The notes under the pieces: model-generated | Databases searched by the model: none | What the model was told of the DNA's origin: nothing | What the model saw: only the letters and a program-made list of their open reading frames with translations | In this document: positions 43,133 to 63,814 of the stretch, piece by piece | Numbering within the stretch: the stretch's first letter is position 1 | How the letters are laid out: every line of letters starts with the position of its first letter | Origin: an uncultured bacterium | Lineage (GTDB): Bacteria > Krumholzibacteriota > Krumholzibacteriia > LZORAL124-64-63 | Length of the DNA stretch: 64,000 nucleotides | Reading direction: 5' to 3' | Assembly: GCA_963727525.1 (NCBI GenBank) | Contig: CAVSGO010000006.1 | Span: forward strand, 46,906 to 110,905 | Position numbers and translations under genes: made by a program

Positions 43133-43139
43133 GGTTGCC

Positions 43140-44263: not shown

Positions 44264-44278
44264 GCAAATGATGGGCCA
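44264..44278 (-). promoter_or_regulatory. Sigma-54-type promoter candidate TGGCCCatcatTTGC (GG-N10-GC) 38 nt upstream of sbp
   Basis: Minus-strand reading of 44278..44264 gives TGGCCC-N5-TTGC, which matches the TGGCAC-N5-TTGC consensus at the -24 GG, the -12 GC and the TTGC element. Confidence 0.45.
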
Positions 44279-44382
44279 ATCGCATGATGATATACAACTT
44301 GTTGCCGCACAATAAATAGCTTATTTAGTATGCCGTATACCGTGAAATGTGGTAGCTTTGCCATGAAATATCATGGTATGAT

Positions 44383-44400
44383 CCGTGATATATCACGGAG
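44383..44400. promoter_or_regulatory. Perfect 18-bp palindrome TCCGTGATATATCACGGA (with nearby CCATGA-aata-TCATGG, 44361-44376) in the divergent sbp / sigma-54-activator intergenic region; candidate activator (UAS) or autoregulatory site
   Basis: Seen directly. Lies about 105 bp upstream of the putative sigma-54 -24 element of sbp and abuts the RBS of the activator gene. Confidence 0.45.
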
Positions 44401-44410
44401 GAGGCCTGCC

Positions 44411-47256: not shown

Positions 47257-47272
47257 AACGCGGAGGTCGATC

Positions 47273-48577
47273 GTGAGCTTGCTCAACCTGTTCAAGACAC
47301 CCGCGGCTCGCGTCCCCCGCGTGGCGCTCGGGTCCACGGCGATCGTCGACCTGCCCGATCCCGACCACGTGGTGATCCCCCTCGAGTATCCCGGTCAGAT
47401 TCGCTTTCGACCCGCGGTCCAGGCCGGAGACTCCGTGGCGCGCGGGCAGGTGATCGGCCGTTCCGAACTGGGCAACTGCGTGCACGCCTCGATCAGCGGG
47501 CTGATCAAGGAGATCCGGACAATCTGGTCGGCTAGTGGCTACCACGTTCCGGCGGTCGTCATCACCCGCGGCGACGCACCCGCGCTCACACCCACCGAGT
47601 GCCTCGGACAGTGCGGGCTCGATCTGGCCTCGGCGACACGCATCGCATTGCTCAAAGCGGGCGGTGTGATTTCCCCGTGGACCACGCCGGGCCAGGACCA
47701 CCGAGAAGCGGACATCGGCGAGTTCCCGGACATCCAGCACATCGTCGTGAAGGGGCTGAACGAGGAGCCCACGATCGTAAATTTCGAGCTGCTCATGGTG
47801 GAGGGAGCCGGCAGGCTGAAGGACGCGTTGCAACGGCTGTGCGATTTCGTGCCCCGCGCCACGATATGGTTGACGGTGGCGCGCCGCCTCGAGCCGTGGG
47901 CGCGCGAGACCTTCGAGGACCTCGTACGCGTGGTGGGCCTCGCCGAGGAGTATCGCCATCGCATCGAGCGGATGGTGGTGCCGCGCGTGACGGGCGTGGC
48001 CATTGCGAATACCGAGGCGTTCCGGTCGCGCGGTGTCGCCGTGCTCTCCGTCGAACACCTGCTGACCGCGGCCGATGCGCTTGCCGGCAAGCCATTCACG
48101 CACAAGACGGCGACGATAGCCGGAGGCCTTCTGCGCGAGCCGGTGACCGTGCGCACACCGGTCGGAACGACGATCGGGACCTTGCTCGCGAGCCAGGGCA
48201 TGAGCGCCGCCGACTACGGTCGTCTGATCGTCGGCGGCCCGATGCGCGGCATGACGCAGTATACCGACGAGACGCCGTTGAGCAAGTTCCAGCACGGCGT
48301 ATTGGTGATGGCAGCGTCCGAGCTGCCGGCGGAGCTGAACCGTACCTGTGTGAACTGCGGCCGCTGCACGCGCGCCTGTCCCGTGCACCTGCAGGTGCAC
48401 CTCATCGGGCGTTGCGTGGAGTACAACCTGCTTGCCGAAGTGCCTTCGCGCCACCCAGAGGCCTGTCACGAGTGCGGGCTCTGCGCCTTCGTCTGTCCGG
48501 CTCATCGGCCCCTGGTGCAGATGATGAAGATCGCCAAGCGTGCGGGCGTGACCGAGACGAGCGAGGCGGTGGCATGA
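47273..48577 (+). CDS. rnfC: Rnf electron-transport complex subunit C
   Basis: GTG 47273 with GGAGG RBS. RnfC_N-like N-terminus, IVGGPMRG, C-terminal 2x[4Fe-4S] (CVNCGRCTRACP, CHECGLCAFVCP). Not evaluated: no canonical GGxGFP FMN/NADH motif was seen by eye. Confidence 0.8.
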   Translation: MSLLNLFKTPAARVPRVALGSTAIVDLPDPDHVVIPLEYPGQIRFRPAVQAGDSVARGQVIGRSELGNCVHASISGLIKEIRTIWSASGYHVPAVVITRGDAPALTPTECLGQCGLDLASATRIALLKAGGVISPWTTPGQDHREADIGEFPDIQHIVVKGLNEEPTIVNFELLMVEGAGRLKDALQRLCDFVPRATIWLTVARRLEPWARETFEDLVRVVGLAEEYRHRIERMVVPRVTGVAIANTEAFRSRGVAVLSVEHLLTAADALAGKPFTHKTATIAGGLLREPVTVRTPVGTTIGTLLASQGMSAADYGRLIVGGPMRGMTQYTDETPLSKFQHGVLVMAASELPAELNRTCVNCGRCTRACPVHLQVHLIGRCVEYNLLAEVPSRHPEACHECGLCAFVCPAHRPLVQMMKIAKRAGVTETSEAVA

Positions 48578-49608
48578 TCCCGACGATCATCGACACGCGG
48601 CCGGCGACCGACCAGGCGCCCAGGAACGATCGCGACGCTCAGCACGACCACAAGCTGAGCGTAGCCGAGGGGCCGCACTGGCACGACGGCAGTTCGCTCA
48701 CGCGGACACAGATTCTCTGGCTTATGGCGCTGCTTCCCGCGGGCGTGGCGAGCGGCGTCATGCTCGGCGCACCGGCGTTGCGGGTGATGGCGCTGGCGGT
48801 CGCGGCCGCGATCGCCTTCGATGCCCTCGCCAACCGCGTGATGTCCCTGCCGGATGCCACCTCGAACGGCAGCAGCATCACTCTCGGCCTGCTGCTCGCC
48901 TTTCTCCTGCCGGTCGACGCGCCGTGGTGGTTGGTGGTCGTGGGCTGTTTCCTGACCATCGTGATCGGCAAGAAGCTCTTCGGTGGCTGGGGCGGCTATC
49001 CCGTGCATCCGGTGGCGCTGAGCTACGCGATGCTCGTCGTGTCGTGGCCAGCGCGGATGGACGTCACGGCGTCGCTCGTGCACGCGACCTGGCGCGCCGC
49101 ACCGGTGGAACCTCTACGGCTCGTCAAGACCCTCGGCGCGGCCGCCGCCGCGCAATACGACCTCCACGACCTCCTGCTCGGCGTGCAGACCGCTGGCGTG
49201 GGCGACGCGATGGTGCTGTGGCTTCTCGCGGGCGGTGTCTTCCTATTCCTCGTCCGGCAGGTGCCCTGGCAGATTCCGATCGGTGTCGTCGCCGGCGTGG
49301 TGCTCTGCGCCTGGCTGCTCGGCATGGCCGACCCCGGGCGCACGGCCACGCCGGCCTTCCAGCTCCTGGCGGGCGGTACGGTGTTCATGGCGTTCTTTCT
49401 GGCGCCGGAGCACACGACATCGCCGGTCAACCCGTGGCCGATGTTCCTCTACGGGTGGTTGGGCGGCGTGTTGCTCGTGCTGATCCGCGCGTTCTCGAGT
49501 CACATCGACGGCACGGTATTCGCCGTGCTGCTGATGAACGTCGCCTGTCCGCTGCTCGACCGCCTGGGGCCCCGGATCGTCGGCCTGGAGGTGCCACGCG
49601 ATGCGTGA
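48574..49608 (+). CDS. rnfD: Rnf complex subunit D (NqrB-like integral membrane subunit)
   Basis: ATG overlaps the rnfC stop (ATGA). Polytopic membrane profile with the conserved GGWGGYPVHPVAL-type segment and the FMN-attachment-region context (TSPVNPWP). Confidence 0.8.
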   Translation: MIPTIIDTRPATDQAPRNDRDAQHDHKLSVAEGPHWHDGSSLTRTQILWLMALLPAGVASGVMLGAPALRVMALAVAAAIAFDALANRVMSLPDATSNGSSITLGLLLAFLLPVDAPWWLVVVGCFLTIVIGKKLFGGWGGYPVHPVALSYAMLVVSWPARMDVTASLVHATWRAAPVEPLRLVKTLGAAAAAQYDLHDLLLGVQTAGVGDAMVLWLLAGGVFLFLVRQVPWQIPIGVVAGVVLCAWLLGMADPGRTATPAFQLLAGGTVFMAFFLAPEHTTSPVNPWPMFLYGWLGGVLLVLIRAFSSHIDGTVFAVLLMNVACPLLDRLGPRIVGLEVPRDA

Positions 49609-50206
49609 AATCGGTCGCCTGGTGCTGGTGCTCGGGCTCATCGGCGTGGTGAGCGCGTCGTCGCTGGCATACGTGCGCACGACCCTCGCTCCCCGGATCG
49701 AGCGGCAGAACGATTTCTACGTGCGCGGGCCGGCGCTCGAACGGCTGTTCCAGCAGCCGGCACGCACTCTCCTGGGCAACAAGGTGACGCTGGATGCGGC
49801 CGGCACCCGCTACCTGATCTTCTTTCGGCGAGTGGACGGCGACGTCACGGGTCTCGCCGTGGAAGCGCCTGGCCACGGCGGCTACGCCGGCGACGTGGTG
49901 ATGATGGTCGGACTCGATCTTGTCACCGAACGGATGCTCGGCGTGGAGATCGTCTCGCACGGCGAGACCCCGGGCGTGGGTGCCCGGATCGAGAGACCGA
50001 CATTCCGCAAGCAGTGGCGAGGCTTGCCGATGGACGACACGCTGAATCTGCGCACTGCGGGCGGCAACATCGACGCGATCAGCGGTGCCACCTTCTCGTC
50101 GCGTGCCATGATCGACGGCACCAACCAGGTCGATGGCCCTGATGCGGGATCACAGGGCCGACATCCTGGCGCGCATAGCCGGGAACTAGACGGAGAGCGG
50201 TCATGA
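49601..50206 (+). CDS. rnfG: Rnf complex subunit G (FMN-binding); last ~20 codons possibly frameshifted
   Basis: N-terminal TM anchor ([19 protein letters not shown]), FMN-binding-domain motif [14 protein letters not shown]. From about nt 50130 the +1 frame reads ...[18 protein letters not shown] (protein-like, RnfG-like C-terminus), whereas the called frame reads [23 protein letters not shown]. Confidence 0.7.
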
Positions 50207-50815
50207 CGTTCAGGCAGGCACTCACTCACGGGTTCTGGCGAGACCTGCCGCCTTTCCGGCTGGTGCTTGGCCTCTGCCCGGCTCTGGCCGTCACCTCGGC
50301 CGCGCCCAACGGGCTGGGCATGGGGTTGGCGGTGACCTTCGTGCTGATCTTCTCCAACATGTTCATCTCGCTGCTGCGCCGGGTGATCCCCGAGCGAGGT
50401 ACGGATCGCCAGCTACATCGTGGTGATCGCCAGCCTCGTGGTGCTCGTGGAACTGGGCATGAAGGCGTTCTTCTTCTCGCTCTCCCAGCAGTTGGGGATC
50501 TACATCCCGCTCATCGTCGTGAACTGCATCCTGCTGGGGCGCGCCGAGGCGTTCGCCTCGCGCAATCCTGTGCTGCTGTCCGTGGCCGACGGGGTGAGCG
50601 TGGGGCTGGGCTACACGGTCTCGCTCACGTTGATGGCGTCGGTGCGCGAGGTCCTGGGCGCCGGCACGTGGTTCGGCCATACAGTGTTCGGACATGGTTT
50701 CGAGCCCTTCGGTTTCATGGTCAGGGCGCCGGGGGCGTTCCTCTGCCTGGGCCTGCTCCTCGGACTGATGAATGCCTGGAGCCGCAAGCGCGGCGAGTTC
50801 TTCGTGCAGACGTGA
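50203..50815 (+). pseudogene. rnfE: Rnf complex subunit E, interrupted by a +1 frameshift at about nt 50392-50404
   Basis: ATG 50203 (GGAGAG RBS): [64 protein letters not shown], then junk in-frame. The conserved continuation (E)[43 protein letters not shown]... is in the next frame (ORF 50420..50815). Removing one G from gagcgaGgtacgg joins them. Confidence 0.8.
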
Positions 50816-50829
50816 CGGGAGACCGTGCC

Positions 50830-51405
50830 ATGAACCTGATTCTGCTGACCGTGAGTGCGATCTTCGTACACAACATCCTGCTGGCGCAATACCTGGGCAA
50901 CTGCCCGTTCTGCGGCGTATCGAAGAGGATCGAAACCGCGACCGGCATGGCGGTGGCCGTGGTATTCGTGACCACTCTGGCGTCGATCTTCACCTGGGGC
51001 ACGTATCACCAGATTCTCGTGCCATTGCACCTGGAGTACCTGCAAACGCTGGTCTTCATCCTGGTGATCGCGGCCCTCGTGCAGTTCGTGGAGATCTTCC
51101 TCAAGAAGAAGAGCCGTTCCCTCTACAACGCGCTCGGGATCTACCTGCCACTGATCACCACGAACTGCGCCGTGCTGGGGATCGCGTTGCTCAATATCAA
51201 GAACAACTTCGGCTTCGTGCACATGGTGGTGTATTCCGCCGCCAGCTCGGCGGGATTCGGCCTTGCCATCGTGCTGTTCGCCGGGGTGCGCGAGCGCCTC
51301 TTCCTGTCGCCGGTGCCGCGGTCCATGCAGGGGACGGCGATCGCCCTCGTCACGGCCGGCATCATGTCGCTCGCGTTCCTGGGGTTCGCGGGCATGGTCG
51401 AGTAG
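50830..51405 (+). CDS. rnfA: Rnf complex subunit A
   Basis: ATG 50830. [27 protein letters not shown]...[19 protein letters not shown] (RnfA/RnfE family signature). Confidence 0.85.
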
Positions 51406-51420
51406 CCACGGAGACGCACC

Positions 51421-53511
51421 ATGTGGATCCCCGCTGTCGTCCTCGGAGGTATCGCCGCGATCGCGGCGGTGGTGCTGGGCATTGCGGCGCGCGTCTTCCA
51501 CGTTCAGGAAGATCCGCGGATCAAGGCCGTCAATGACCTGCTCGCCGGCGCCAACTGCGGGGGCTGCGGCTACGCGGGCTGCGTCGCCTGTGCGGAGGCG
51601 ATCGTCCGCGGCGAGGTGGAGCCCAACGCATGCGTGGTCGGTCAGGCCGATGTGGCGCGCGCCGTCGCCTCGTTTCTGGGCATGGAACTGGCCGACACGG
51701 AGCCGCAGATCGCGTGCCCCGACTGCCAGGGAGGGTTGCGCGCCTCGCGCAAGTACGCCTACGCCGGCTTTGACGACTGCCGCGCTGCTATGCTCTATTT
51801 CCACGGCCCCGTGTCATGCCAGCACGGATGCCTCGGGCTGGGCACCTGCATCCGCGCCTGCAAGTTCGGGGCGATCACGATGGGGCCCGCCGGGTTGCCC
51901 CTCTTCGATCCTACGCGCTGCGTGGCCTGCGGCGCCTGCGCTCGCGCTTGCCCCAAGGGCATCATCTCGATCATTTCCGAGACGACCAAGATCCTGCACT
52001 GGAATCGCTACACCGAATGCCTGGCCCCGTGCCGGCAGAAGTGTCCGGCGCAGATCAACATCCCCAAGTACATCGAGCACCTGAAGCGCGGCGAGTTCGC
52101 CGAGGCGTTGCTGACGATCAAGGAGAGCAACCCGCTACCGCTCTCCACGGGCCGGGTATGCCCCGAGCCGTGTGCCCTGGCCTGCCGGCGACATATCGGC
52201 GACGAACCGGTAGCGATCAACTATCTCAAGCGCTTCGCGGCCGACTGGGAAATGAGCTCGGGGCGCCGCCTGCACATCCCTGTGCTTCCGGATACCGGCC
52301 GGAAGGTCGCGGTGATCGGAGGCGGGCCAGCCGGACTGTCCGCGGCCTACTTCCTGCGCCGCCTCGGCCACGCCGTCACCATCTATGATCAGATGCCGGC
52401 GCTCGGCGGCATGCTGCGCTACGGCATTCCGGAGTACCGTCTTCCCAAGCGTGTTCTCGACTGGGAGATCGAGGGCATCCTGGCACTCGGCATCCAGGCC
52501 GCGACCGGTGTCGCTCTGGGCAAGGACTTCACCATCGATTTCCTGCGCGCCAATGGTCACGACGCGATCTTCCTCGCCGTGGGTGCATGGCGCGACAATG
52601 GCCTTGGCCTCGAGGACGACGGCGTCTCTGGTATCGTGAGCGGCATCGAGTTGCTGCGGCGCATGCAGACGTCCGCGCCGATCCCCTTACGTGGACACGT
52701 GATCGTGATCGGCGGCGGCAACACCGCCATCGATGCCGCGCGCACCGCCCTGCGAGCCGGCGCGAGTCGGGTGAGCATCGTGTATCGCCGTTCGCGCGAC
52801 GAGATGCCGGCGAATCCGGCCGAGATCGTGGCCGCTGACGAGGAGGGCGTGCGATACCGCTTCCTCAGCGCGCCCAACCGCATCGTATCCGACGCCGGCC
52901 ACGTCACCGGGCTCGAGATTCTGCGCATGGAGCTGGGCGAACCCGATCCCAGCGGTCGGCGAAGGCCCGTGGCGATCGCGGGATCGGAAGAGACGATCCC
53001 GTGCGACCTGATCATCGAGGCCGTGGGCCAGATGCCCGACATCGATTTCCTTGCGGTGCCGGGCATGCCGTCGTTGCCGACAACGCGCTGGAACACGATC
53101 GACGCCAGCGAGGACACGCTACAGACCGATGTGCCCTACATCTTCACCGGTGGTGATTGCTTCACGGGACCCTCGCTCATGGTCAACGCGATCGGTGCTG
53201 GTCGGTATGCGGCACGATCGATCCACTATTACGTGACCGAGGGCAGGATTCCGCCAATCGAGCACCGACAGACCGAACTCATCAGCGACTCGCTCTACGA
53301 GTCCATCGCGGGTGTGGCACCCCGCCCTCGGGTGCACGAGCCCGTCGTGACGCTGCAGGACCGCCTCGGCACTTTCAATGAGGTCGAGGGCACGATCGAC
53401 GAAGAGGATGCCCTCTACGAGGCCGCGCGTTGCCTGCATTGCGGCACCTACTGCTATGACCACGATCTGGAGCAGGAACGTCTGCGGCAGGAGACCGAGC
53501 AGCCGGCGTGA
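51421..53511 (+). CDS. rnfB: RnfB (N-terminal membrane anchor + Fe-S/ferredoxin domains) fused to a GltD/NfnB-like NAD(P)H-dependent FAD oxidoreductase (696 aa)
   Basis: GGAGA RBS. MWIPAVVLGGIAAIAAVVLGIAA, NCGGCGYAGC (RnfB cluster), two 4Fe-4S ferredoxin motifs (CIRACKFGAI / CVACGACARACP); then KVAVIGGGPAGLSAAYFL (FAD GxGxxG) ... VIVIGGGNTAIDAARTA (NAD(P) GxGxxA) ... TGGDC as in glutamate-synthase small-subunit-like flavoproteins. Confidence 0.8.
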   Translation: MWIPAVVLGGIAAIAAVVLGIAARVFHVQEDPRIKAVNDLLAGANCGGCGYAGCVACAEAIVRGEVEPNACVVGQADVARAVASFLGMELADTEPQIACPDCQGGLRASRKYAYAGFDDCRAAMLYFHGPVSCQHGCLGLGTCIRACKFGAITMGPAGLPLFDPTRCVACGACARACPKGIISIISETTKILHWNRYTECLAPCRQKCPAQINIPKYIEHLKRGEFAEALLTIKESNPLPLSTGRVCPEPCALACRRHIGDEPVAINYLKRFAADWEMSSGRRLHIPVLPDTGRKVAVIGGGPAGLSAAYFLRRLGHAVTIYDQMPALGGMLRYGIPEYRLPKRVLDWEIEGILALGIQAATGVALGKDFTIDFLRANGHDAIFLAVGAWRDNGLGLEDDGVSGIVSGIELLRRMQTSAPIPLRGHVIVIGGGNTAIDAARTALRAGASRVSIVYRRSRDEMPANPAEIVAADEEGVRYRFLSAPNRIVSDAGHVTGLEILRMELGEPDPSGRRRPVAIAGSEETIPCDLIIEAVGQMPDIDFLAVPGMPSLPTTRWNTIDASEDTLQTDVPYIFTGGDCFTGPSLMVNAIGAGRYAARSIHYYVTEGRIPPIEHRQTELISDSLYESIAGVAPRPRVHEPVVTLQDRLGTFNEVEGTIDEEDALYEAARCLHCGTYCYDHDLEQERLRQETEQPA

Positions 53512-53949: not shown

Positions 53950-55619
53950 TGGACACGAAGCTGCCCGGAATCGTCGTGACCGGCGCCTCCGGCTTCATCG
54001 GTCGGCACTTCCTGGCCAGTGCGGCCGGACGCTACCGGCTGTTCTGTCTGGCGCGCCGCTCGCGCGAGGAGTCGCAGATTCCCGCCTACGAAAACCTGCA
54101 TTGGTCGCAGGTTGACGTTGCGCGCTGGGACGACCTACGCGAGGTCGTGCATTGCGTGAAGAGCCATGGAGGCGCGTCTGCCGTGCTTCATCTCGCCGGC
54201 TACTACGACTTCCACAACATGGAGCACCCCGAATACGAACGCACGAACGTGAAGGGGACCCGCAACGTTCTCAAACTGGCGCGTCAGCTCGGTGTCGGTC
54301 GCTTCATCTTCGCCAGCTCCCTGGCCGCGTGCCGGTTTCCGCCGGCGGGCCTGGCGATCACCGAGGATTCGCCGGCCGACGCCGGATTCGCCTATGCCCG
54401 GAGCAAGCGCGACGCGGAGGAACTCATCTGCGCGCATACCCAATGGATCCCAGCGTCCATCGTGCGCCTCGCTGCGGTCTATAGCGACTGGTGCGAGTAT
54501 CCACCGCTCTATGTCTTCCTGAAGACGTGGCTATCGGACGGCTGGAACGCCTGCATTCTCGGGGGGCGCGGCGAATCGGCGGTGCCGTACATTCACGTCC
54601 AGGATCTGGTGAAGCTCTTTCATGTGATCCTCGAGCGCAGCGCTACGCTGCCGCGACTGGCCGTGTACAACGCCAGCCCGAATTCAGTGGCCAGCCATCG
54701 GGATCTGTTCCAGATGGCGACGCGTGCATACTACGGCACGGACATCCAGCCGCGATGCGTGCCGCGCGTACTGGCGGTACCGGGCGTGTTCCTGCGCTGG
54801 TGGCTCGGCAAGGCCCGAGGGGCGGCGCCGTTCGAGGCGCCCTGGATGATGCGGTATGTGGACGCGCAGCTCCGGGTCGATGCCAACCGCACCCATGCGG
54901 CGCTCGATTGGCGCCCGGCGCCGCGCATGGACGTCGTACGACGGCTACTGGTGATGATCGAGAATATGAAGACGCACTCCGAAATATGGCATCAGCGCAA
55001 TGAGGCGGCTCTACGGCGCGTGGCATACCGTCCCAATCTCGTCATCGCCCGGATCCTCGACGACCTGCGCGAGGAGTTGATCGCCCGGATCGCCGAACGG
55101 GTGAATTCACCGGATCTGGCCTCGCAATTCGCCGGATATCACGACATGGAGCGCGAGACGCTCCGCTGGTACCTCGCGTTGCTCTACCAGGTGCTCGTGG
55201 CGTCCGTGCGCACGCGCGACCGGCAGCTCATCCGGCACTACGCCCAGGTCATCGCCACGAGACGCCAGCAGGAGGGTTTCTCGTCCGACGAAGTGCGCGA
55301 CTTCCTGATCCTGGTGGGCAAGATCGTGACTGAGACGTTGCGCACGCATGCCGAGCTTGTGGGGCACGAGCAGCCCATTCACGACAATGTCGGTCTGGCG
55401 TTCCAGCTCGCGGTCGACGGCATCGAGGACGTCTACGAAGCTCACGAGGCGCTCAATCCGGAATTGATTGCGCGGGGGCAGGGCTTCGCGGAACTGGGCT
55501 CGAACCGCGACCTCGAGCATATGGTTCACCAGCTCCGCGATCTCTGTGGCGATGTGTTCCCGACGCCCGGTGTCCACGCGAACACGGCCACGACGGATCG
55601 TCCCGTCATCGGACCATGA
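53949..55619 (+). CDS. NAD-dependent epimerase/dehydratase (extended SDR) family protein with a ~250-aa C-terminal helical extension (556 aa)
   Basis: ATG 53949 (MDTKLPGIVVTGASGFIGRHF = GxxGxxG Rossmann). YARSKRDAEE (YxxxK). The upstream part of ORF 53508..55619 is read-through. Confidence 0.8.
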   Translation: MDTKLPGIVVTGASGFIGRHFLASAAGRYRLFCLARRSREESQIPAYENLHWSQVDVARWDDLREVVHCVKSHGGASAVLHLAGYYDFHNMEHPEYERTNVKGTRNVLKLARQLGVGRFIFASSLAACRFPPAGLAITEDSPADAGFAYARSKRDAEELICAHTQWIPASIVRLAAVYSDWCEYPPLYVFLKTWLSDGWNACILGGRGESAVPYIHVQDLVKLFHVILERSATLPRLAVYNASPNSVASHRDLFQMATRAYYGTDIQPRCVPRVLAVPGVFLRWWLGKARGAAPFEAPWMMRYVDAQLRVDANRTHAALDWRPAPRMDVVRRLLVMIENMKTHSEIWHQRNEAALRRVAYRPNLVIARILDDLREELIARIAERVNSPDLASQFAGYHDMERETLRWYLALLYQVLVASVRTRDRQLIRHYAQVIATRRQQEGFSSDEVRDFLILVGKIVTETLRTHAELVGHEQPIHDNVGLAFQLAVDGIEDVYEAHEALNPELIARGQGFAELGSNRDLEHMVHQLRDLCGDVFPTPGVHANTATTDRPVIGP

Positions 55620-57078
55620 CCATCTTGCGCGTGAGCACGTGGCCCGCCTGCTCGAGGCGGTACACGTAGACCCCGGCCGGCATCGCGGCGCCTTGGTCGT
55701 CGGTGCCGGCCCACATCGTCACGTGGTGGCCGCCGTCGCGTTCGGCGTCGACGAGGGTCCGTATCCGTCGGCCGCGCTGGTCGAAGATGGCAAGTGTGAC
55801 GTGATCTCCGCCGCGCCGCACGTCGTACCCGATCGTGGTCTGGGGATTGAAGGGGTTGGGAATGTTCTGCTCGAGGGCGATGGCGTTGGGCACGCTGTCG
55901 ATGTTGACCGTGGTGCCCGTGATGCGGTAGACCGTATCGCCGCCGACGTCGACCACGTACAGTTCGCCGAGCCCATCCTGGCCGATCGACGCGAGCCCGC
56001 CGAAGCCGCCCGGCGGCGTGATCTGGTCGGTCCAGTCCGTGACCGGTCCGAATCCGCTCGCTGCCGACCACGCGCCACTCCAGATCTGACCGCTGCAGTA
56101 ATCGGCGAAAAAATACTGGCCGGCAAGCGCCGGTAAGGCGTCGCCGCGATAGACGTAGCCGCCTGAGATGGAGCATCGAAACGGGGTGCCGCCGTGCGAG
56201 TACTCGTGGACCGGCAACACCAGGGTGCCGTCGTTGCAATCACTCGGCGGATCGTAGCAACTCGTGCCTTCCATCAGGTGCCAACCGTAGTTCTCACCAC
56301 CGCTCGAGCTGGCGGGTTGGACGTCGATTTCCTCCAGCTCACCCTGGCCCACGTCGGCGATGTAGAGATCTCCGGTCTGTCGATCGAAGGAGAAGCACCA
56401 GGGGTTGCGCAGGCCGTAGGCCCAGATCTCGTCACGCCCGGGCTGGCCCACCAGGGGATTCGAGGGCGGATTGGTGTAGCCGGGTGCCATGGCCACGTTG
56501 ATGCGCAGGATCTTGCCCAGCAACAGGTCGACATTCTGCGCCCTGTTCTGCGGGTCGCCGGCTGAGCCACCGTCGCCCAGGCCGATGTAGAGCATGCCGT
56601 CCGGCCCGAACTGCAGGCACCCGCCGTTGTGGTTGCTGTACGGCTGTGTCACCGAGATCAGGTGCTCGGCGCTCGTGGGGTCGGCGACGTCGGGATCGGC
56701 GCTGACATGGTAGCGTACGATCTGCGTGTCGCCGTTGACGTCGGTGTAGTCGACGTAGAAGCGACCCGAGATGTCATAGTCGGGCGCGAAGGCGAGCCCC
56801 AGGAGTCCACGTTCGCTCCCCGTGCCGACCAGATCGGAGATGTCGAGGAAGACATCGAGTCGGTTGCCGCCCTGGTCGTAGACCTCGATACGTCCACCCT
56901 GCCGCACGACGAAGAGGCGAGGATCGCCATCCGGCGCGACGAGCCGCACGGGCTGAGCGATGTTCGTGATCACCGGTTCAACCGCAAGGACGGCCGCAGC
57001 CAACTGCGGGCGCATGGTTATCGCAACGAGGATGATAACGAGCGCGGCCAGTACGGGCCGCGAGAATGTGCGTAGCAT
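55606..57078 (-). CDS. Secreted PQQ-dependent sugar dehydrogenase (soluble glucose/sorbosone dehydrogenase family beta-propeller) with a C-terminal FlgD-Ig-like/T9SS-like sorting domain (490 aa)
   Basis: GGAGG RBS. Signal peptide. GLLGLAFAPDY, HNGGCLQFGPDGMLYIGLGDGG, YGLRNPWCFSFD, ENYGWHLMEG (sGDH-family motifs). C-terminus QNIPNPFNPQTTIGYDVRRGGDHVTLAIFDQRGRRIRTL...GVYVYRLEQAGHVLTRKMVMVR. Confidence 0.85.
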   Translation of the reverse strand: MLRTFSRPVLAALVIILVAITMRPQLAAAVLAVEPVITNIAQPVRLVAPDGDPRLFVVRQGGRIEVYDQGGNRLDVFLDISDLVGTGSERGLLGLAFAPDYDISGRFYVDYTDVNGDTQIVRYHVSADPDVADPTSAEHLISVTQPYSNHNGGCLQFGPDGMLYIGLGDGGSAGDPQNRAQNVDLLLGKILRINVAMAPGYTNPPSNPLVGQPGRDEIWAYGLRNPWCFSFDRQTGDLYIADVGQGELEEIDVQPASSSGGENYGWHLMEGTSCYDPPSDCNDGTLVLPVHEYSHGGTPFRCSISGGYVYRGDALPALAGQYFFADYCSGQIWSGAWSAASGFGPVTDWTDQITPPGGFGGLASIGQDGLGELYVVDVGGDTVYRITGTTVNIDSVPNAIALEQNIPNPFNPQTTIGYDVRRGGDHVTLAIFDQRGRRIRTLVDAERDGGHHVTMWAGTDDQGAAMPAGVYVYRLEQAGHVLTRKMVMVR

Positions 57079-57229
57079 GCCGTTCCTCCGGATTTCGGTC
57101 GAGATTCCGTCAATACGACGATCGTCAAGTCAGATATTTATACAGGATATTACTCGTCATGTATGGCGCCAGGCAAGTTTTTGACCGGTGGCGGGAAGAT
57201 CTTGCCCGATCACGATCAGAACACGCCAT

Positions 57230-57247
57230 TGCGACGTGCGACGCACG
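57230..57247. promoter_or_regulatory. Tandem TGCGACG TGCGACG overlapping the perfect palindrome CGTGCG-a-CGCACG, ~190 bp upstream of the sigma-54-type promoter; enhancer (UAS) candidate
   Basis: Seen directly within the 410-bp AT-rich intergenic island 57079-57488. Confidence 0.3.
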
Positions 57248-57423
57248 ATCTCTCCCCGTCCTGGTCGGCACAATTCGAGGAGCGAGTAGAGCGCGAAACC
57301 TCTACCTGTATTACGAAACGGAAAAAGACGACTTTGGTCATGATAACTGATTGCAATATCGCTCGTTACAGCAATATTTTCTCAGTAATTTCTTCATTTT
57401 CTTCTTTCTCCGAGCGATACTAT

Positions 57424-57439
57424 TGGTGTACGTTTTGCA
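57424..57439 (+). promoter_or_regulatory. Sigma-54-type promoter TGGTGTacgttTTGCA (GG 57425-57426, GC 57437-57438, 10-nt spacing) ~50 nt upstream of the decahaem cytochrome gene
   Basis: Matches TGGCAC-N5-TTGCA at the TGG, spacing and TTGCA elements. A/T-tract between it and the upstream repeats (possible IHF bend). Direct repeats CAACACCT x2 (57439-57470) in the leader. Confidence 0.5.
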
Positions 57440-57488
57440 ACACCTGTCAGCGTATCAACACCTTGATGACCCTGTTCAAGGAGACGGC

Positions 57489-58457
57489 ATGCGCACGAAC
57501 GGCGGATCACCAACCTTCCACGTGATGGCCTTGGCCACGTGCACGGTGCTCTGCCTGGGCCTGATCGCCCTCCTTCCCGGAGTGGCAACGGCCCAGGACG
57601 CGATGCGAACGACCGAGACCTGCCTCGGATGCCACGACGGTCAGGCCGCGAACCTGGTGGGGAGTCCTCACCAGATCACGGCACTGACGGACGCGGCCGG
57701 GGCACGCATTGCTTGCACCGACTGTCACAAGGGCCCTGCCAGCCACTGGGAGGACGACCCCGAATCGAATCCAATGGGCAATCCGGCCACGGTCTCGGCC
57801 GATGCGGCGGCGAAGCTTTGCGCCGGTTGCCACGTCAACCCTCACCAGCAATCGATGATGACCGGCGATCCGCACAACACCGCCGGCGTGTCCTGCACGA
57901 GCTGCCACCAGGTGCATGGTGGAGCGAACCGCGCCGATCTGCTGAAGCAGCCGGAGCCCGGTCTCTGCTACAGCTGCCATGGCGCCGTGCAGGGGCAATT
58001 CGCGCAGCCGTCGCGTCATCCCGTCGCCGATGGGGTCATGACGTGCAGCGACTGCCACCTCAAGTCTGCGGACGCGCGCGGTGCGCTCACATGGTCGGGC
58101 ACCAACGCGATGTGCGTGAGCTGCCACGACCAGTTCCAGGGACCGTTTCCCTTCGAGCACCAGGCAACCATGGACTTCTCCACGGAAGAGGGCGGATGTC
58201 TGAGCTGTCACGACCCGCACGGATCGGCCCTGCCGCGTCTGCTCAAGCAGCCGTACGAGTCGCCTCACTACAACCTCTGTACCCAGTGCCACGCGGTTCC
58301 CAAGCACAACTTCAATCAGGAGCACGGCACCGCCTGGGCGGGCGTGGCCTGCACAGAGTGTCACGTCGACGTTCACGGATCCTACGAGAACCGGCTGTTC
58401 CTGACGCCGGCTCTGCGGGCTCAGGGCTGTTCCGCCGTGGGCTGCCACCATTTCTAG
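57489..58457 (+). CDS. Periplasmic decahaem c-type cytochrome (MtrA/OmaB-like size and haem density) (322 aa)
   Basis: ATG 57489 with AGGAGA RBS. Signal peptide MALATCTVLCLGLIALLPGVATAQDA. Ten CxxCH (CLGCH, CTDCH, CAGCH, CTSCH, CYSCH, CSDCH, CVSCH, CLSCH, CTQCH, CTECH) plus a terminal CSAVGCH (Cx4CH). Confidence 0.85.
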   Translation: MRTNGGSPTFHVMALATCTVLCLGLIALLPGVATAQDAMRTTETCLGCHDGQAANLVGSPHQITALTDAAGARIACTDCHKGPASHWEDDPESNPMGNPATVSADAAAKLCAGCHVNPHQQSMMTGDPHNTAGVSCTSCHQVHGGANRADLLKQPEPGLCYSCHGAVQGQFAQPSRHPVADGVMTCSDCHLKSADARGALTWSGTNAMCVSCHDQFQGPFPFEHQATMDFSTEEGGCLSCHDPHGSALPRLLKQPYESPHYNLCTQCHAVPKHNFNQEHGTAWAGVACTECHVDVHGSYENRLFLTPALRAQGCSAVGCHHF

Positions 58458-58469: not shown

Positions 58470-60038
58470 ATGCGACGATCGACTGCGACGACAACCTGTC
58501 TGGCTCTGTTGCTGGGCCTGTTGTACGCGGCGCCCGTCCACTGCGCGACGCTGAATGGAACGCTCACGCTCGGAAACATCAGTCTGGACGAGGATGCCGG
58601 CGATCTGTCCGCGATGCAGGAGACGTACAACATCCACGACGGATTCTCCGTCTCGCAGATCCTGCTCAACGGCCAGCTCAGCGACCGGAACATGTTCCAG
58701 CTCGACCTGCGTGAGATCAACCTGGACAGCCGCAAGGGGCTCTTCACCTACCGGCTGGCCGACGTCGGCGACGTGACGGTGCGCTATGACCAGCATCGGC
58801 AGCTCTTCGATGCCGATGGTGCCGTCAGTTCCGAGCGCAAGGATCTGCGCATCGGAGCCAGGGCGGCCATGACACCGTGGCTGCGCGTGTCGGGCAACTA
58901 CAATCACCAGACGCGCGCGGGCGACCGACTGGGCTATCCAGCCGGCAACATCGGCTGGCTGGGCAACGGCTACGACTACACGCTGCAGACCGGCCGCGTG
59001 GAGGCCGAGGTGCATGACCACGTCCGCGGTCTGGCCGTGGGCTACGAGATGTCGGACTATGCCGACACTGAGCACAACGGTACCGACCGCCAGGGCCATG
59101 TGGTCTCGGTGCGTGGTCACATGCCCTGCCTGTTCTTGCCCGATCACGTGTCGCACTACGTGCGCGCGGCGTTCGGCCAGCAGGAACTGGTGGGCAGCGG
59201 CCTGCAGTACGACATGGCGTCATTCCAGTACGTGGGCGTGGTCAAGCCGGTGGATCAGTTCAAGTTCAAGTACGACCTGTACCTGAGCCGCGTGGACGAC
59301 GACGCCACCGATCTGAAGACGGACGACATCCGCAACAACTTCGACCTGACCTACTTCTTCAAGTACGGCCAGGTCTTCGGTGGTTATAGCTACGTGACTG
59401 CCGACGACGACCGCACCCTCACCAGCTCCAATGTCTGGCGTGTGGGAGCGGCGGGCGGCTATCACCATGCGATCCGCGCCAAGGTGAGCTACGCCACGTC
59501 GGACAAGACCGACACCGAGCAGCTCACCTTGCTCAAGGACGTGGAGCAGGACCGTTTCCGGGCGAGCCTGCAGTCGCAACCGGTTGAGAATCTGACGGTC
59601 GGCGCGTCCTATGCCGACCGCACGCGGGAGTTCCCTGTCATCAACGTGAAGGCCACCGGCAAGCAGGTGAGCACCTTCGCGCGGGTGACGGTGCCCGGCT
59701 GGGGCGGCTTCGGTGCCGACTACACCTATAGCCGTGACGAGTATGACGACCTGGTGGCGGGATACGACGCCGAGAGCAACGTCGTGACCGGCCGTGTCGA
59801 CGTGGATTACATCAAGAATCTGCGTCTGTCCGCCGCCGTGTCCTATCTGGATATCGGAAAGGACCTCGATATCGAGAAGTCGATCCTCTCCTTCGAGGGG
59901 CGTTACAACCTGCTCGACGACTATCACATCGAGGTCAAGTACAACGTCTACAACTACGACGACTACATCCTGCTGGACCGCTACTACACGGCCAACGTCG
60001 TGTGGGTGAACATCGGTTACGATTTCTCGGTGGAGTAG
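58470..60038 (+). CDS. Predicted outer-membrane beta-barrel protein (porin-like, MtrB/OmbB-type role inferred from context) (522 aa)
   Basis: AAGGGG RBS. Signal peptide MRRSTATTTCLALLLGLLYAAPVHCA. Long series of amphipathic Y/D/T-rich beta-strand-like segments (VSVRGHM, KFKYDLYLSRV, DLTYFFKYGQVFGGYSYVT, KVSYATSD, HIEVKYNVYNY, ANVVWVNIGYDFSVE). Confidence 0.65.
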   Translation: MRRSTATTTCLALLLGLLYAAPVHCATLNGTLTLGNISLDEDAGDLSAMQETYNIHDGFSVSQILLNGQLSDRNMFQLDLREINLDSRKGLFTYRLADVGDVTVRYDQHRQLFDADGAVSSERKDLRIGARAAMTPWLRVSGNYNHQTRAGDRLGYPAGNIGWLGNGYDYTLQTGRVEAEVHDHVRGLAVGYEMSDYADTEHNGTDRQGHVVSVRGHMPCLFLPDHVSHYVRAAFGQQELVGSGLQYDMASFQYVGVVKPVDQFKFKYDLYLSRVDDDATDLKTDDIRNNFDLTYFFKYGQVFGGYSYVTADDDRTLTSSNVWRVGAAGGYHHAIRAKVSYATSDKTDTEQLTLLKDVEQDRFRASLQSQPVENLTVGASYADRTREFPVINVKATGKQVSTFARVTVPGWGGFGADYTYSRDEYDDLVAGYDAESNVVTGRVDVDYIKNLRLSAAVSYLDIGKDLDIEKSILSFEGRYNLLDDYHIEVKYNVYNYDDYILLDRYYTANVVWVNIGYDFSVE

Positions 60039-60075: not shown

Positions 60076-61101
60076 ATGTCCGCTCTCAGGAATCTCAGTC
60101 TAATCACGATCGTGCTACTGCTCCTGGTCGGTGTGACCGCATGCGACCGCACGATCACCCGTGTCGAGCAGGTGGCGGATCAGCCCAGCAGCTGCTTCAA
60201 CTGCCATGGCGACGACAACACCGCGCTCATCTCGGCCCAGCTGGCATGGGAGAACTCGCGCCACGCGAGCGGCCTCAATACCAACCGGGCCACGGCCGAC
60301 TGCTCCGGTTGCCATACCGGCGACGGCTTCATCGCGCGCGCCGAAGGGAACATCCCCGAGGCCTACGACAACCCGTCGGTCATCCATTGCTTCACCTGCC
60401 ACGCGCCGCACAGCAACGGCGACTTCGGTCTGCGCTGGACGGAAATGGCCACGCTCGAGGACGGCACCACGTTCGATCTCCACGCTGGCAACCTCTGCGT
60501 GGCTTGCCACCATGCGCGCGACGACGTCAACACCTTCGTGCGCACGGGCGGCGACGTGACGATCAGCAGCACCCACTGGGGTCCGCACCATGGCCCGCAG
60601 GGCGACATGCTGCTGGGCTCCAACGGCTACGAGTACGACAGCTACGGCTACGAGCAGACGCCATACCACCGCACCCTCACCCAGGACGGCTGCGTGGACT
60701 GCCACTTCAAGACCACGCGCAACTTCGTGGTGGGCGGCCACTCGTTCAACATGGAGGCCGATCTCGAGGGCTCCACGGTGCGCAACACCGCGGCCTGCGC
60801 GGCGTGCCACACCGGCCTCAGCGATTTCAACTACAACTCCGTGCAGGACAGCGTGGCCACCATGCTGACGACGCTGGAGACTTCGCTCGAGGATGCGGGC
60901 CTGTTCACCAGTGGCCACCCGGTCGCACAGACCGTGGCCGAGGCCGACGCGGGCGCCATGTGGAACTACCTGCTGGTCGAGGAAGACCGCAGCATGGGCG
61001 TTCACAACTCGAAGTACATCATCGGACTTCTTGACTCTTCCATTCAATATTTGGCGGACAAGAAGTCGGTTGCACCGCTGGCTCTGGTTGACCAAGATTA
61101 G
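60076..61101 (+). CDS. Lipoprotein hexahaem c-type cytochrome (341 aa)
   Basis: AAGGAGGA RBS. Lipoprotein signal LLLLVGVTAC. Six CxxCH (CFNCH, CSGCH, CFTCH, CVACH, CVDCH, CAACH). Confidence 0.85.
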   Translation: MSALRNLSLITIVLLLLVGVTACDRTITRVEQVADQPSSCFNCHGDDNTALISAQLAWENSRHASGLNTNRATADCSGCHTGDGFIARAEGNIPEAYDNPSVIHCFTCHAPHSNGDFGLRWTEMATLEDGTTFDLHAGNLCVACHHARDDVNTFVRTGGDVTISSTHWGPHHGPQGDMLLGSNGYEYDSYGYEQTPYHRTLTQDGCVDCHFKTTRNFVVGGHSFNMEADLEGSTVRNTAACAACHTGLSDFNYNSVQDSVATMLTTLETSLEDAGLFTSGHPVAQTVAEADAGAMWNYLLVEEDRSMGVHNSKYIIGLLDSSIQYLADKKSVAPLALVDQD

Positions 61102-61192: not shown

Positions 61193-63814
61193 GTGAACTT
61201 GAGAGCTTCACTGCGTGCGCTGGCCGTGTTTATTCTCGCCGCGACACTGTCCAGCATCACCTCTCTCTCCTCGGCGTACGCCGACAACGACACGTGCTTC
61301 ATGTGCCACGACGATGCGTCGCTCAAGAGCGAGTCGGGCAAGTCCGTCGGCGTTCTGGCGAAGTTGTTCGATGCGAGTGTTCACGCCGGCCTGGAGTGCA
61401 CCGACTGCCACACGCAGGACGCGAACTTCGATGACGTGCCGCATTTCTCGCGTTACCAGCCGGTCAATTGCGCGATGTGCCACGAGGACGCGGCGCACAG
61501 CTTCGGATTGAATTTTCACGCCAAGGCGGCTACCCAGGGCAACACCAATGCTCCGAACTGCAAGGACTGCCACGGCGTCGACGGCAATCCCCACGCGATG
61601 CGCGCCCTTACCGCGCGCACGGCGGAGTCGGCGTGCCGACGGTGCCACGCTTCGGAAGCCAAGATCTATGACACCGGTGTGCATGCGATCGCCGACAAGG
61701 GTGGTCGCGAGAGGGCCGGATGCGTGACCTGCCACCAGTCGCACGGCCCGGGTCTGCCGCCCTCGTCCGGCGCCGTGAACGGCCTCTGCGAGAAGTGCCA
61801 CAAGGGCGCCATGGAGGACGTCCAGCGCGGTGGCCACGTGGCCATTGGCGAGGGACTCAACCAGACGCTGAACTGCGCTTCGTGCCACGACGTGCATGGC
61901 ACGCACAAGCCGCACCTGTCCGCGCGCGTGGCCCAGGCGTGCGTCACCTGCCACCAGAAGGAACGCGATGCCTTCATAGGGTCGGTACACGAGACGCTCA
62001 TCGCCGGCGGCACGATGCATTGCCTTTCCTGTCACAGCACGCACAAGGACGAGGCGGCGGCGCGGCAGTACGACGCGGGCTGCGGCAGTTGCCACGGCGA
62101 CGTGGAAAAGATCTACCGCGGTAGCGTGCACCGTTTCGGCCGCTTGCGCGGCGATGACGGTGCCGCGACGTGTGCCAACTGTCACCACGGACACCATATC
62201 CTCCCGGCGACCGATCCGGCGTCGCCGACGAATCGCTTGAACATTCCCAGCACCTGCGGCGAATGCCACACCGATGAGAGCATCGTCACCAAGGACTTCG
62301 TGCGTCTGCCGATCACGCTGCCAAACTACATGAACTCGGTGCACGGCAAGGGGCTCGTGGCGGGCAAACCCACCGCGACCTGCACCGACTGCCATGGCAC
62401 GCACGACCTGCAGACCGCCCAGGATCCGAATTCGAAGATCAATCGGTTCCACATCGCGCAGACGTGCAGCAAGTGCCACGCGGATATCGCGGAGAAATAC
62501 GAGAACTCGATCCACGGCAAGGCTGTGCAGGTGGGTATCGAGGATTCGCCGACCTGCATCGATTGCCACGACGAGCACCTGATCAAGGACGTCAAGGACC
62601 CCACCGCGCGGCAGAATCCAGAGAACATCGCGCGCGAGCTGTGCGGTGACTGCCACAACAACTCGGACATGGTGTCGAAGTACGGCATCGCCGCGGGCGT
62701 CGTGAGCAGCTATCTCGACAGCTACCACGGGTGGGCGATCAGCCGCGGGGGAACCCTCGTGGCCACCTGCGTCGATTGCCACACGACCCACGAGATCCGG
62801 GCCCCGCAGGATCCCGAGTCGTCGGTCTTCGTGGACAACGTGACAAAAACGTGCGGCAAGTGCCACGCGAATGCCAACGAGACGTTTTCCCGCTCTTACA
62901 CGCACGCGGGCGCGCTAGCGGCGCGCGGGCCGCACGGCTGGGCGAAGCTGATCTACCTCATCCTGATCGCCGTGGTGCTTGGCGGCATGGCGCTGCACAA
63001 CTTCGTGATCGCGCGCTTCGAGATCATCAAGCACCGCGTGCGCCGGCGCCGGGAGGCGTACGTCGTGCGCTGGCAGCGCGTGGAGCGCGTGCAGCACCTG
63101 ATCCTGCTCACGTCGTTCTTCGGCCTGGCCATCACCGGCTTCGCGCTGCGCATGCACGACGCCTGGTGGGTCAAGGTGATCGGCCTCGGTGGCTCCGAGT
63201 CGGTGCGCGCCAACCTGCACCGCGCGCTGGCCGTGATCCTCACCGGAGCAGCGTTCTTCCACCTGTGGTGGATCATCGCCACCCGGCGCGGTCGTTACGC
63301 CGTCAAGGAGATGGCGCCCGGCGCGCACGACATCGTGCACTTCATCAAGAACATGGGCTTCCACCTGGGCTTCACGTCCGAGCGACCGAAGTTCCGACGG
63401 TTCGATTACACGCAGAAGGCGGAGTACTGGGCGGTCGTCTGGGGCACCATGGTCATGGCTCTCACCGGGCTCGTGCTGTGGTTCCCCGTGCTGGTGACCA
63501 CCTGGACGCCCGCCTGGGTGGTGCGCGTGGCCGAGGTGGTGCACTACTACGAGGCCATCCTCGCGGTCTCGGCCATCATCATCTGGCACTTCTTCTACGT
63601 CATCTTCATGCCATCGGAGTACCCGGTGAGCACCGTGTGGCTCGACGGCCGCATGCCGGAGCACGACTGGAAGGAATTCCACGCGGCCGAGCACGAGACC
63701 GACGGCGACGCAGTGGTGCAGCAGCCCGGGCCCAGCACCGATCTGCCCGGCATCGCGGTGTTCGTGCCCAAGGCGTTGCGCAGCAAGCGTCCTCCCGACC
63801 CGAAACACGGGTGA
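61193..63814 (+). CDS. Fusion of a 19-haem periplasmic c-type cytochrome domain with a C-terminal membrane dihaem cytochrome b (FdnI/HydC-like); CbcL-like inner-membrane quinol:cytochrome oxidoreductase candidate (873 aa)
   Basis: GTG 61193 with GAGAGGGA RBS. Signal peptide. 19 CxxCH motifs (CFMCH ... CGKCH). Then four TM helices with conserved Arg/His (VVRWQRVERVQHLILLTSFFGLAITGFALRMHD..., HRALAVILTGAAFFHLWW..., EYWAVVWGTMVMALTGLVLWF..., HYYEAILAVSAIIIWHFFYVIF), as in cytochrome b subunits of formate dehydrogenase / NiFe hydrogenase. Confidence 0.85.
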   Translation: MNLRASLRALAVFILAATLSSITSLSSAYADNDTCFMCHDDASLKSESGKSVGVLAKLFDASVHAGLECTDCHTQDANFDDVPHFSRYQPVNCAMCHEDAAHSFGLNFHAKAATQGNTNAPNCKDCHGVDGNPHAMRALTARTAESACRRCHASEAKIYDTGVHAIADKGGRERAGCVTCHQSHGPGLPPSSGAVNGLCEKCHKGAMEDVQRGGHVAIGEGLNQTLNCASCHDVHGTHKPHLSARVAQACVTCHQKERDAFIGSVHETLIAGGTMHCLSCHSTHKDEAAARQYDAGCGSCHGDVEKIYRGSVHRFGRLRGDDGAATCANCHHGHHILPATDPASPTNRLNIPSTCGECHTDESIVTKDFVRLPITLPNYMNSVHGKGLVAGKPTATCTDCHGTHDLQTAQDPNSKINRFHIAQTCSKCHADIAEKYENSIHGKAVQVGIEDSPTCIDCHDEHLIKDVKDPTARQNPENIARELCGDCHNNSDMVSKYGIAAGVVSSYLDSYHGWAISRGGTLVATCVDCHTTHEIRAPQDPESSVFVDNVTKTCGKCHANANETFSRSYTHAGALAARGPHGWAKLIYLILIAVVLGGMALHNFVIARFEIIKHRVRRRREAYVVRWQRVERVQHLILLTSFFGLAITGFALRMHDAWWVKVIGLGGSESVRANLHRALAVILTGAAFFHLWWIIATRRGRYAVKEMAPGAHDIVHFIKNMGFHLGFTSERPKFRRFDYTQKAEYWAVVWGTMVMALTGLVLWFPVLVTTWTPAWVVRVAEVVHYYEAILAVSAIIIWHFFYVIFMPSEYPVSTVWLDGRMPEHDWKEFHAAEHETDGDAVVQQPGPSTDLPGIAVFVPKALRSKRPPDPKHG

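Follow-up and report, generated by a model that had tools for sequence, protein, structure and literature searches.

A candidate sigma-54-type promoter before a decahaem cytochrome operon of an uncultured Krumholzibacteriia bacterium, and a distant activator whose conserved partner is a sulfate transporter operon

Described sigma-54 systems and the decahaem cytochrome locus

In Geobacter sulfurreducens the cbcBA operon is controlled by the sigma-54 activator BccR (bioRxiv 10.1101/2021.04.15.440034), and a wider RpoN regulon has been described (PMC2725144), so that sigma-54 control of respiratory cytochromes is not a new idea. We analysed a 64,000-nucleotide (nt) stretch of DNA from an uncultured bacterium of the Krumholzibacteriia (contig CAVSGO010000006.1, positions 46,906 to 110,905; hereafter the window), in which the divergent intergenic control region at 57079-57488 carries a sigma-54-type candidate, TGGTGTACGTTTTGCA, at 57424-57439 on the plus strand in front of a decahaem cytochrome operon. 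As at cbcBA, multihaem cytochromes of extracellular electron transfer would stand behind a -24/-12 promoter, here a candidate, and because the promoter is of the -24/-12 type, expression would be gated, as in Geobacter, by a signal-sensing AAA+ activator. The two loci differ in other respects. BccR is encoded divergently beside cbcBA and has a receiver domain, whereas the cytochrome operon of the window has no adjacent activator. The Geobacter promoters fit TTGGCACGGTTTTTGCT, whereas the window site has TGGTGT. Finally, cbcBA encodes an inner-membrane bc-type complex, whereas the genes in the window specify a decahaem protein of the MtrA type with a putative partner in the outer membrane.

The sigma-54 sites of Salmonella (n = 29, PMC3844500) share with the candidate the GG-N10-GC core, the T before GG, the T-rich run before GC and the A at -11, and they lie 27-154 bp before their genes, a range that includes the 50 nt seen here. 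The candidate departs from them in the two bases after GG and in its lower matrix score, both of which are taken up below. The zraS site of Desulfovibrio desulfuricans G20, TCTGGTGCGTTGCTTGCAT (TGGTGC-N5-TTGCA), is a RegPrecise entry based on comparative inference (S2 Table of PMC12316311). It has the same rare TGGTG in the -24 element, the same TTGCA in the -12 element and the same spacing, but it carries C, not T, at the sixth position and lies beside the zraSR activator system.

By gene content the operon is of the type of the Shewanella mtrCAB and mtrDEF conduits, in which genes for a decahaem protein of the periplasm, its partner in the outer membrane and an outer cytochrome with several haems succeed one another. 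The decahaem protein of the window, at 170.9 bits, falls under the DmsE-family cut-off of 192.2, however, and its putative 522-aa partner matches no family. The Shewanella operons are transcribed with sigma-70 and depend on CRP and cyclic AMP. Within the window itself, the sulfate transporter locus sbp-cysTWA displays the supported sigma-54 pattern, in which an adjacent activator, a site conserved in three genomes and phased repeats occur together. The cytochrome region, by comparison, has the core motif only, without an adjacent activator or conserved repeats, and with one informative relative.

As a whole, the 410-bp stretch is an ordinary promoter region between divergent genes. A sigma-70-type promoter candidate for a dehydrogenase gene lies at its left end, and its right 88 nt (57401-57488) hold a conserved core promoter and a short leader for the decahaem/porin-cytochrome operon. 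An earlier note on this DNA had described an AT-rich control region of this extent before the decahaem start, and both its coordinates and its low GC content (48.3% against 66.9% window-wide) were borne out.

The core promoter region and its competing readings

A sigma-54-dependent promoter is the single most likely reading of the core region at 57401-57488, although we hold it tentatively and give it somewhat less than an even chance. The motif TGGTGTA-CGTT-TTGCA has exact GG-N10-GC spacing (GG 57425-57426, GC 57437-57438) and lies on the sense strand, with its GC 50 nt before the ATG at 57489. Its -24 element would be weak (TGGTGT) and its -12 element strong and T-rich (TTTTGCA). On this reading we infer that the operon would be read with sigma-54 from a start near 57450 (57449-57452 from the motif), which would leave a leader of ~39 nt, and that another activator, distinct from the 44411-45976 protein, would be encoded outside the window. 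As at all sigma-54 promoters, no transcription would be expected before an ATP-driven enhancer-binding protein had remodelled the closed complex. Within the window, which covers 64 kb of a 378-kb contig, use of sigma-54 by the genome is indicated indirectly by an activator with an intact GSFTGA loop and by a site before the sulfate-binding-protein gene that is conserved across three genomes.

Conservation is the first line of evidence. The relatives comprised 148 loci, with 76 loci (at most 59% identity) from a genome scan and 65 loci (at most 58%) from a metagenome scan. Six decahaem homologues were also looked up individually (the P0002 contig begins at the gene). The sole relative with an alignable upstream region was L078, a 2-kb Logan contig whose decahaem protein is 66% identical, the best relative found. 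L078 keeps 15 of the 16 bases of TGGTGTACGTTTTGCA, and the one change (C57431 to G) falls in the free spacer. Identity to L078 is ~40% over 57079-57300, 62% over 57345-57400, 83% over 57401-57423 and 94% over the 16-mer at 57424-57439, the highest of any segment, followed by 80% over 57440-57488 and 73% in the coding region. The 88-nt promoter-plus-leader block (57401-57488, plus strand), which includes the ribosome-binding site AAGGAG at 57478-57483, is 83% identical, and since identity there exceeds that of the coding region, the core region is under constraint. A conserved 9-mer, AACTGATTG (57345-57353, plus strand), lies ~100 nt upstream of the predicted starts, and CTGATTGCA is found in L081 too. 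A three-way alignment with L081 was abandoned, the ambiguity being too great to place the L081 sigma-70 promoter relative to the window.

The statistical weight of the motif, which is modest, was assessed with two position-specific scoring matrices, the check that the earlier note had proposed. The lenient matrix was written by us from the Barrios consensus, which is quoted in PMC2725144. It gave the site 11.4 bits, rank 9 over both strands of the window, a score reached in 17 of 2000 shuffles of the region (local p ~0.009). With this matrix the candidate and the site of the sulfate-binding-protein gene are the two best scorers in the true intergenic DNA of the window. The strict matrix was trained on 29 intergenic Salmonella sites supported by chromatin immunoprecipitation (PMC3844500), which are canonical enterobacterial promoters. 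It gave 4.9 bits (p 0.13), so that the weight of the motif differs by model. The deficit is confined to the -24 half, where T-G stands in place of the expected C-A. Measured against YTGGCACG-N4-TTGCW, the site matches 9 of 13 consensus positions, as many as the weakest Geobacter promoters validated by primer extension (PMC2725144). Simple patterns were counted as well. TGG-N8-TTGCW occurs five times in the window against 2.2 expected, and the spacing control TGG-N9-TTGCW, which misses the TGGTGTACGTTTTGCA site, gave four matches against 2.2. TGGCAC-N5-TTGCW with up to two mismatches gave 27 matches against 25.7 expected and had no discriminating power; the TGGTGTACGTTTTGCA site needs three mismatches.

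The upstream regions of 108 non-redundant decahaem orthologues were scanned with both matrices, with the reverse strand and shuffles as controls. The lenient matrix at a threshold of 11 found 12 forward sites, against 1 on the reverse strand and 1.5 in shuffles; the strict matrix at a threshold of 8 found 8, against 1 and 3.5. Among the better examples are TGGCATAGTCGTTGCC in L102 and GGCAYGGCnnTCGCW in L088, L099 and L101. A Krumholzibacteriia group (L009, L027 and L061) carries AGG-N8-TATTGCTTTAC (AGG-N8-TATTGCT) with a freely varying spacer. No activator gene was present in the fetched flanks of the loci with sigma-54-type sites. An activator gene does lie near 7 of the 148 decahaem loci (38-44% identity), but at none of the seven does a sigma-54-type site precede the decahaem gene.

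Two other arrangements were seen in these upstream regions. L020, L028, L036, L042 and L059 share a conserved TTGTCAY-N5-CTTGCA, ~150-235 nt before the decahaem gene, whose spacer varies freely. Apart from GT for GG, as at Salmonella clpP, this element looks like a sigma-54 site, and a separate sigma-70 promoter lies downstream of it. In L009, L027/L144 and L061 (and L038), a perfect palindrome, GTTAAAAAATTAAC (TGATAAAAAATTATCA in L038), abuts AGG-N8-TATTGCTTTAC at 40-100 nt upstream of the decahaem gene, whereas the comparable palindrome of L039, L041 and L116 directly adjoins a -35 element, TTGACG.

A number of observations weigh against sigma-54 control of the cytochrome operon. Over the 3.9 kb of true intergenic DNA in the window, the lenient matrix finds at least one match of this quality in 35% of shuffle sets and two in 7%. 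Under the Salmonella-trained matrix, the 4.9 bits of the site compare with a training range of 14.1-20.2, are reached by 256 of 2000 local shuffles and are exceeded at 24 or more other positions of the window. C-A follows GG (or GT) in 29/29 Salmonella sites, and the A:T pair is a direct sigma-54 contact (PMC3844500); the candidate has T-G there. In the 720 promoters compiled in the S2 Table of PMC12316311, the pentamer counts are TGGCA 393, TGGCC 80, TGGCG 46, TGGTA 32, TGGCT 31 and TGGTG 16, which puts TGGTG at no more than ~2%, and TTGGTGT and CTGGTGT occur 0 times each. In L078 it is not the motif alone but the entire block up to the ATG that is conserved. Three to four of the sites enriched in the orthologue scan are TGTCAY-N5-CTTGCA, without GG. 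No activator is encoded beside the cytochrome operon, and no conserved enhancer was found upstream when the window was compared with L078. Of the promoter that the earlier note had placed at 57424-57439, the geometry, position, orientation and -12 half fit, and the conservation in L078 speaks for it, while the -24 half, the weak matrix score and the overlap with a sigma-70-type candidate spoke against it.

That overlapping candidate, TTCTCC-N17-TACGTT at 57406-57434 (plus strand; -35 57406-57411, -10 57429-57434, start ~57440-57443), is a minimal sigma-70-type promoter, and the operon may be read from it with a start at ~57441, the TGG...TTGCA match being coincidental. We regard this as a serious possibility, if a doubtful one. 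It overlaps TGGTGTACGTTTTGCA and is equally conserved in L078, where the aligned counterpart, TTGTCC-N17-TAGGTT, carries every one of the six key bases (TTG...TA...T). The same -10 hexamers (TACGTT/TAGGTT) follow a TTGACG -35 element before the orthologous gene in L016 and L019, and most relatives show clear TTGACN-N17-TAnnnT promoters before the orthologous operon. Sigma-70 promoters also far outnumber sigma-54 promoters in any genome. The T-rich tract just upstream of both core-promoter candidates (57376-57410, plus strand, 74% A+T), partly conserved in L078 as TTCTTCTTT, could act as a UP-element-like or bending tract; in a sigma-70 promoter it would serve as a UP-like aid, probably together with a conventional activator. 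Against the candidate, with 16-18 nt spacing allowed, it matches the sigma-70 hexamers at only 6 of 12 positions in the window, where the G of the -35 element is missing, and at 7 of 12 in L078. When the last 150 nt are shuffled, 13% of the shuffles contain a minimal site of this type, the same order as in the strict sigma-54 test. A consensus scan of 56900-57700 at a threshold of 9/12 found no sigma-70 promoter. Since only 2 of 21 upstream regions of the window reach 9/12, weak matches are normal here, and the lack of a strong sigma-70 promoter is uninformative and was dropped as an argument. A sigma-70 promoter leaves the invariance of TTGG and TTGCA beside the -10 hexamer unexplained. The two readings predict starts ~8 nt apart.

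It is unlikely that the conserved block is chiefly a leader or operator, with the start further upstream, for example at TTGCAA-N18-TATTTT (57351-57380), and with 57416-57488 acting as a repressor site or as a structure in the 5' untranslated region that occludes the start codon. That upstream element is the best plus-strand sigma-70 match (8/12), conservation runs up to the ATG, and the leader sequence GCGUAU (57450-57455) can pair with the start-codon sequence AUGCGC, a pairing kept by GCGCAU in L078. The element itself is not conserved, however, as L078 lacks any site of at least 8/12 in 523 nt. The leader fold is not unusually stable (z = -1.8 and -0.8), an Rfam search of 56900-57700 gave no match, and a small upstream open reading frame is not conserved as a protein between the window and L078. 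The leader hairpin spans 57450-57495 in the window and 547-594 in L078, where GCGCAU converts a G-U pair to G-C.

Two further promoter types were considered. An extracytoplasmic function (ECF)-type promoter was ruled out, as CGTT becomes GGTT in L078 and no AAC-type -35 element is present. The Bacteroidetes-type TTTG-N20-TAnnTTTG has the same geometry as the sigma-70 candidate and was not kept apart from it; the relatives have canonical TTGACN/TAnnnT elements. A rough Bayesian estimate for the sigma-54 promoter took a prior of ~5-10% for the operon family and a likelihood ratio of ~100 for the TGG/TTGCA geometry in place. The rare T-G at -23/-22 cut the ratio about threefold, and a further discount was made for a chance match anywhere in the window. 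The outcome lies between doubtful and evenly balanced.

The activator at 44411-45976 and the sulfate transporter operon

The only sigma-54 activator detectable in the window is the enhancer-binding protein encoded at 44411-45976 (plus strand), of which tblastn found one copy, in agreement with the earlier note. Its AAA+ domain (PF00158, 1.4e-65) covers residues 194-359 and has the GSFTGA loop at 268. The Fis-type helix-turn-helix is weak (HTH_8 at a sub-threshold E = 0.011), and the divergent, GAF-like N-terminus has no GAF or other Pfam match at E<=1. The full-length homologues are 55-62% identical; HTH_8 is found in 24 of 28 of them and GAF_3 in 8. The GAF label given earlier is not detectable in the window copy, and it is reasonable by homology because of these homologues.

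The activator almost certainly serves the neighbouring sulfate transporter operon, as judged from gene order and sequence motifs. The sbp-cysT-cysW-cysA operon (40301-44226, minus strand), whose genes were confirmed to encode a sulfate transporter, is its conserved divergent partner. Orthologues of the activator are divergent from the same four genes in L152 (62% identity) and L153 (Krumholzibacteriia, 57%), the whole locus spanning 40301-45976 in the window, 3995-9515 in L152 and 3896-9554 in L153. The sulfate-binding-protein gene has its own sigma-54-type site, TTGGCCCATCATTTGCC (44263-44279, minus strand), 37 nt before the ATG at 44226, and GG-N10-GC sites stand in the same place in L152 (ATGGCTCAAGACTTGCG) and L153 (CTGGCATCTCATTTGCG). 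All three lie ~35-45 nt before the ATG, and the spacer within the site is free to vary. Three phased repeats of the ATATTTCACGG type, ACATTTCACGG, ATATTTCATGG and ATATATCACGG, start at 44340, 44361 and 44383 (span 44340-44398, minus strand), 21-22 nt apart, and L152 has two perfect ATATTTCACGG copies in the equivalent spacer. In both the window and L152 the repeats lie 60-120 nt upstream of the site. They are likely binding sites of the 44411 activator. With up to one mismatch the ATATTTCACGG motif occurs nowhere else in the window or L152, and with up to two mismatches no copy was found in 57079-57488 or in the L078 upstream region. An activator with an adjacent target of this kind is the textbook arrangement. 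Sigma-54 control of sulfate uptake seems better supported than the sigma-54 promoter of the cytochromes; to our knowledge it has not been described as a regulon.

The sulfate-binding-protein gene (43140-44226, minus strand) is split over two frames near 43760, such that the L152 orthologue aligns with one frame over its residues 21-152 and with another over 133-348. The frameshift is either a pseudogene lesion or an assembly error. A formylglycine-generating enzyme, a sulfatase and a radical-SAM/SPASM maturase are clustered at 20577-24084, 16 kb from the sulfate transporter.

The earlier note had proposed an enhancer at 57230-57247, where a tandem TGCGACG pair (57230-57243) overlaps the palindrome CGTGCGaCGCACG (57235-57247). 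The pair, the palindrome, the CAACACCT direct repeat (57438-57445 and 57456-57463, plus strand) and the A/T tract are all present. A repeat search of 441 nt found eight direct-repeat families and eight inverted repeats, and because 7- and 8-base repeats and palindromes with 6-bp arms are expected in such a length, both the CAACACCT repeat and the palindrome are at chance level. The proposed enhancer is only ~38% identical in L078, which carries a different GC-rich palindrome near the equivalent position, and similar GC-rich near-palindromes were found within genes of the window, so that its role as an enhancer was not upheld. It is also unlike the ATATTTCACGG-type repeats, the only ones in the window that go with an activator. 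The CAACACCT repeat is not conserved either, its first copy reading CAGAACCT in L078. An inverted repeat, TATCGCTCG/CGAGCGATA (57357-57365 and 57411-57419), was rejected as it is not conserved in L078. The core consensus for integration host factor (IHF) is WATCAANNNNTTR. The match TATCAACACCTTG (57453-57465) was also rejected as an IHF site, as it falls on the downstream side of the promoter and has decayed in L078.

The full scheme of the earlier note, in which the 44411 activator binds 57230-57247, loops the DNA and activates a sigma-54 promoter at 57424, is very improbable. In its favour, the protein is the only activator in the window, and 184-194 nt separate the palindrome from the -24 element downstream. 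In L152, moreover, a gene 70% identical to the last cytochrome gene of the window lies 2.3 kb beyond the activator orthologue. Against these points, the conserved neighbour of the activator in three genomes is the sulfate operon with its own sigma-54-type promoter, and the likely binding repeats are confined to 44340-44398 and the L152 equivalent. The 57230-57247 sequence is not conserved in L078 and has no counterpart near the activator gene (44227-44410). About 11-12 kb and at least 10 genes, including a complete rnf cluster, separate the activator from the cytochrome operon. No sigma-54-type site was found before the L152 copy of the last cytochrome gene, and the proximity in L152 looks like a shared chromosomal neighbourhood, not shared control. 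The pairing of this activator with the cytochrome operon is therefore contradicted by the sbp-cysTWA neighbourhood and by the absent ATATTTCACGG repeats. As the activator belongs to the sulfate-uptake operon, there is no basis for inferring redox or metabolite control of the cytochromes from it.

L152 is otherwise syntenic with 37-46 kb of the window. The region of its 19-haem/cytochrome-b orthologue is at 10148-15033, compared with 61193-63814 in the window. Between the activator and this gene the window has, relative to L152, additional genes, namely those for cytochrome c7, rnf, an epimerase, the dehydrogenase and the decahaem operon. Downstream of the activator, 46603-53511 holds an 8-haem cytochrome c7-like gene and then the rnf cluster, in which RnfE is joined to RnfA (50203-51405) and RnfB to an NAD(P)H oxidoreductase of the GltD-like kind (51421-53511).

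Genes around the control region and meaning for the lineage

The control region is flanked on its left by the gene of a GSDH/PQQ (pyrroloquinoline quinone)-type sugar dehydrogenase with an FlgD_ig C-terminal domain (55606-57078, minus strand). A sequence match to a sigma-70-type promoter for this gene, TTGCCT-N18-TAATAT, lies at 57147-57176 (minus strand), and the adjoining 11-mer ATACAGGATAT is common to the window and L078. A search through the divergent dehydrogenase gene found that its neighbourhood is not conserved among the relatives. On the right the operon begins with the MtrA/DmsE-like decahaem gene (57489-58457, plus strand; 322 aa, 10 CXXCH motifs, ATG 57489), and continues on the same strand with the genes of a secreted 522-aa protein (58470-60038; signal peptide present, Pfam match absent), of a 6-haem cytochrome of 341 aa with six CXXCH motifs and a match to the MtrC/MtrF domain (60076-61101) and of a cytochrome that carries 19 haems and a fused cytochrome b561 domain (61193-63814). 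The closest named relatives of the proteins of the region come from genome bins of Krumholzibacteria, Eisenbacteria and Gemmatimonadota. In L081 and L151 the decahaem operon lacks the 19-haem/cytochrome-b gene, and for this reason the fourth gene may be transcribed separately.

At least five secreted proteins of the window end in an FlgD_ig-type domain (1990-5118, 13868-15853, 24116-27886, 27969-29342 and 55606-57078), apparently as a C-terminal sorting tag typical of the lineage. The window further encodes three regulators, an Rrf2-family protein (36493-37008), a CRP/FNR-family protein (39409-40086) and a DUF4388 protein that binds cyclic nucleotide monophosphates (15813-16835), all on the minus strand.

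A non-canonical sigma-54 promoter on an electron-conduit operon of an uncultured lineage is the one possibility of moderate interest in this otherwise ordinary region. In its broader form, the proposal is that a high-GC bacterium of the FCB (Fibrobacterota-Chlorobiota-Bacteroidota) group gates an outer-membrane electron conduit by sigma-54, through a non-canonical TGGTGT -24 element and a distant activator, and that several related lineages do likewise from more canonical sites. We consider this conceivable but far from assured. If the promoter does depend on sigma-54, the electron-conduit operon would be strictly off until a specific activator fires, and it would be a dedicated signal, in place of general control by catabolites or oxygen, that turns on extracellular electron transfer in the FCB group. 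A rare -24 variant would be added to the known range of promoters, an increment over Geobacter without a new principle. Such control would suggest that, beyond the well-studied Geobacter and Shewanella models, the respiration of metals or electrodes has an environmental trigger that can be identified.

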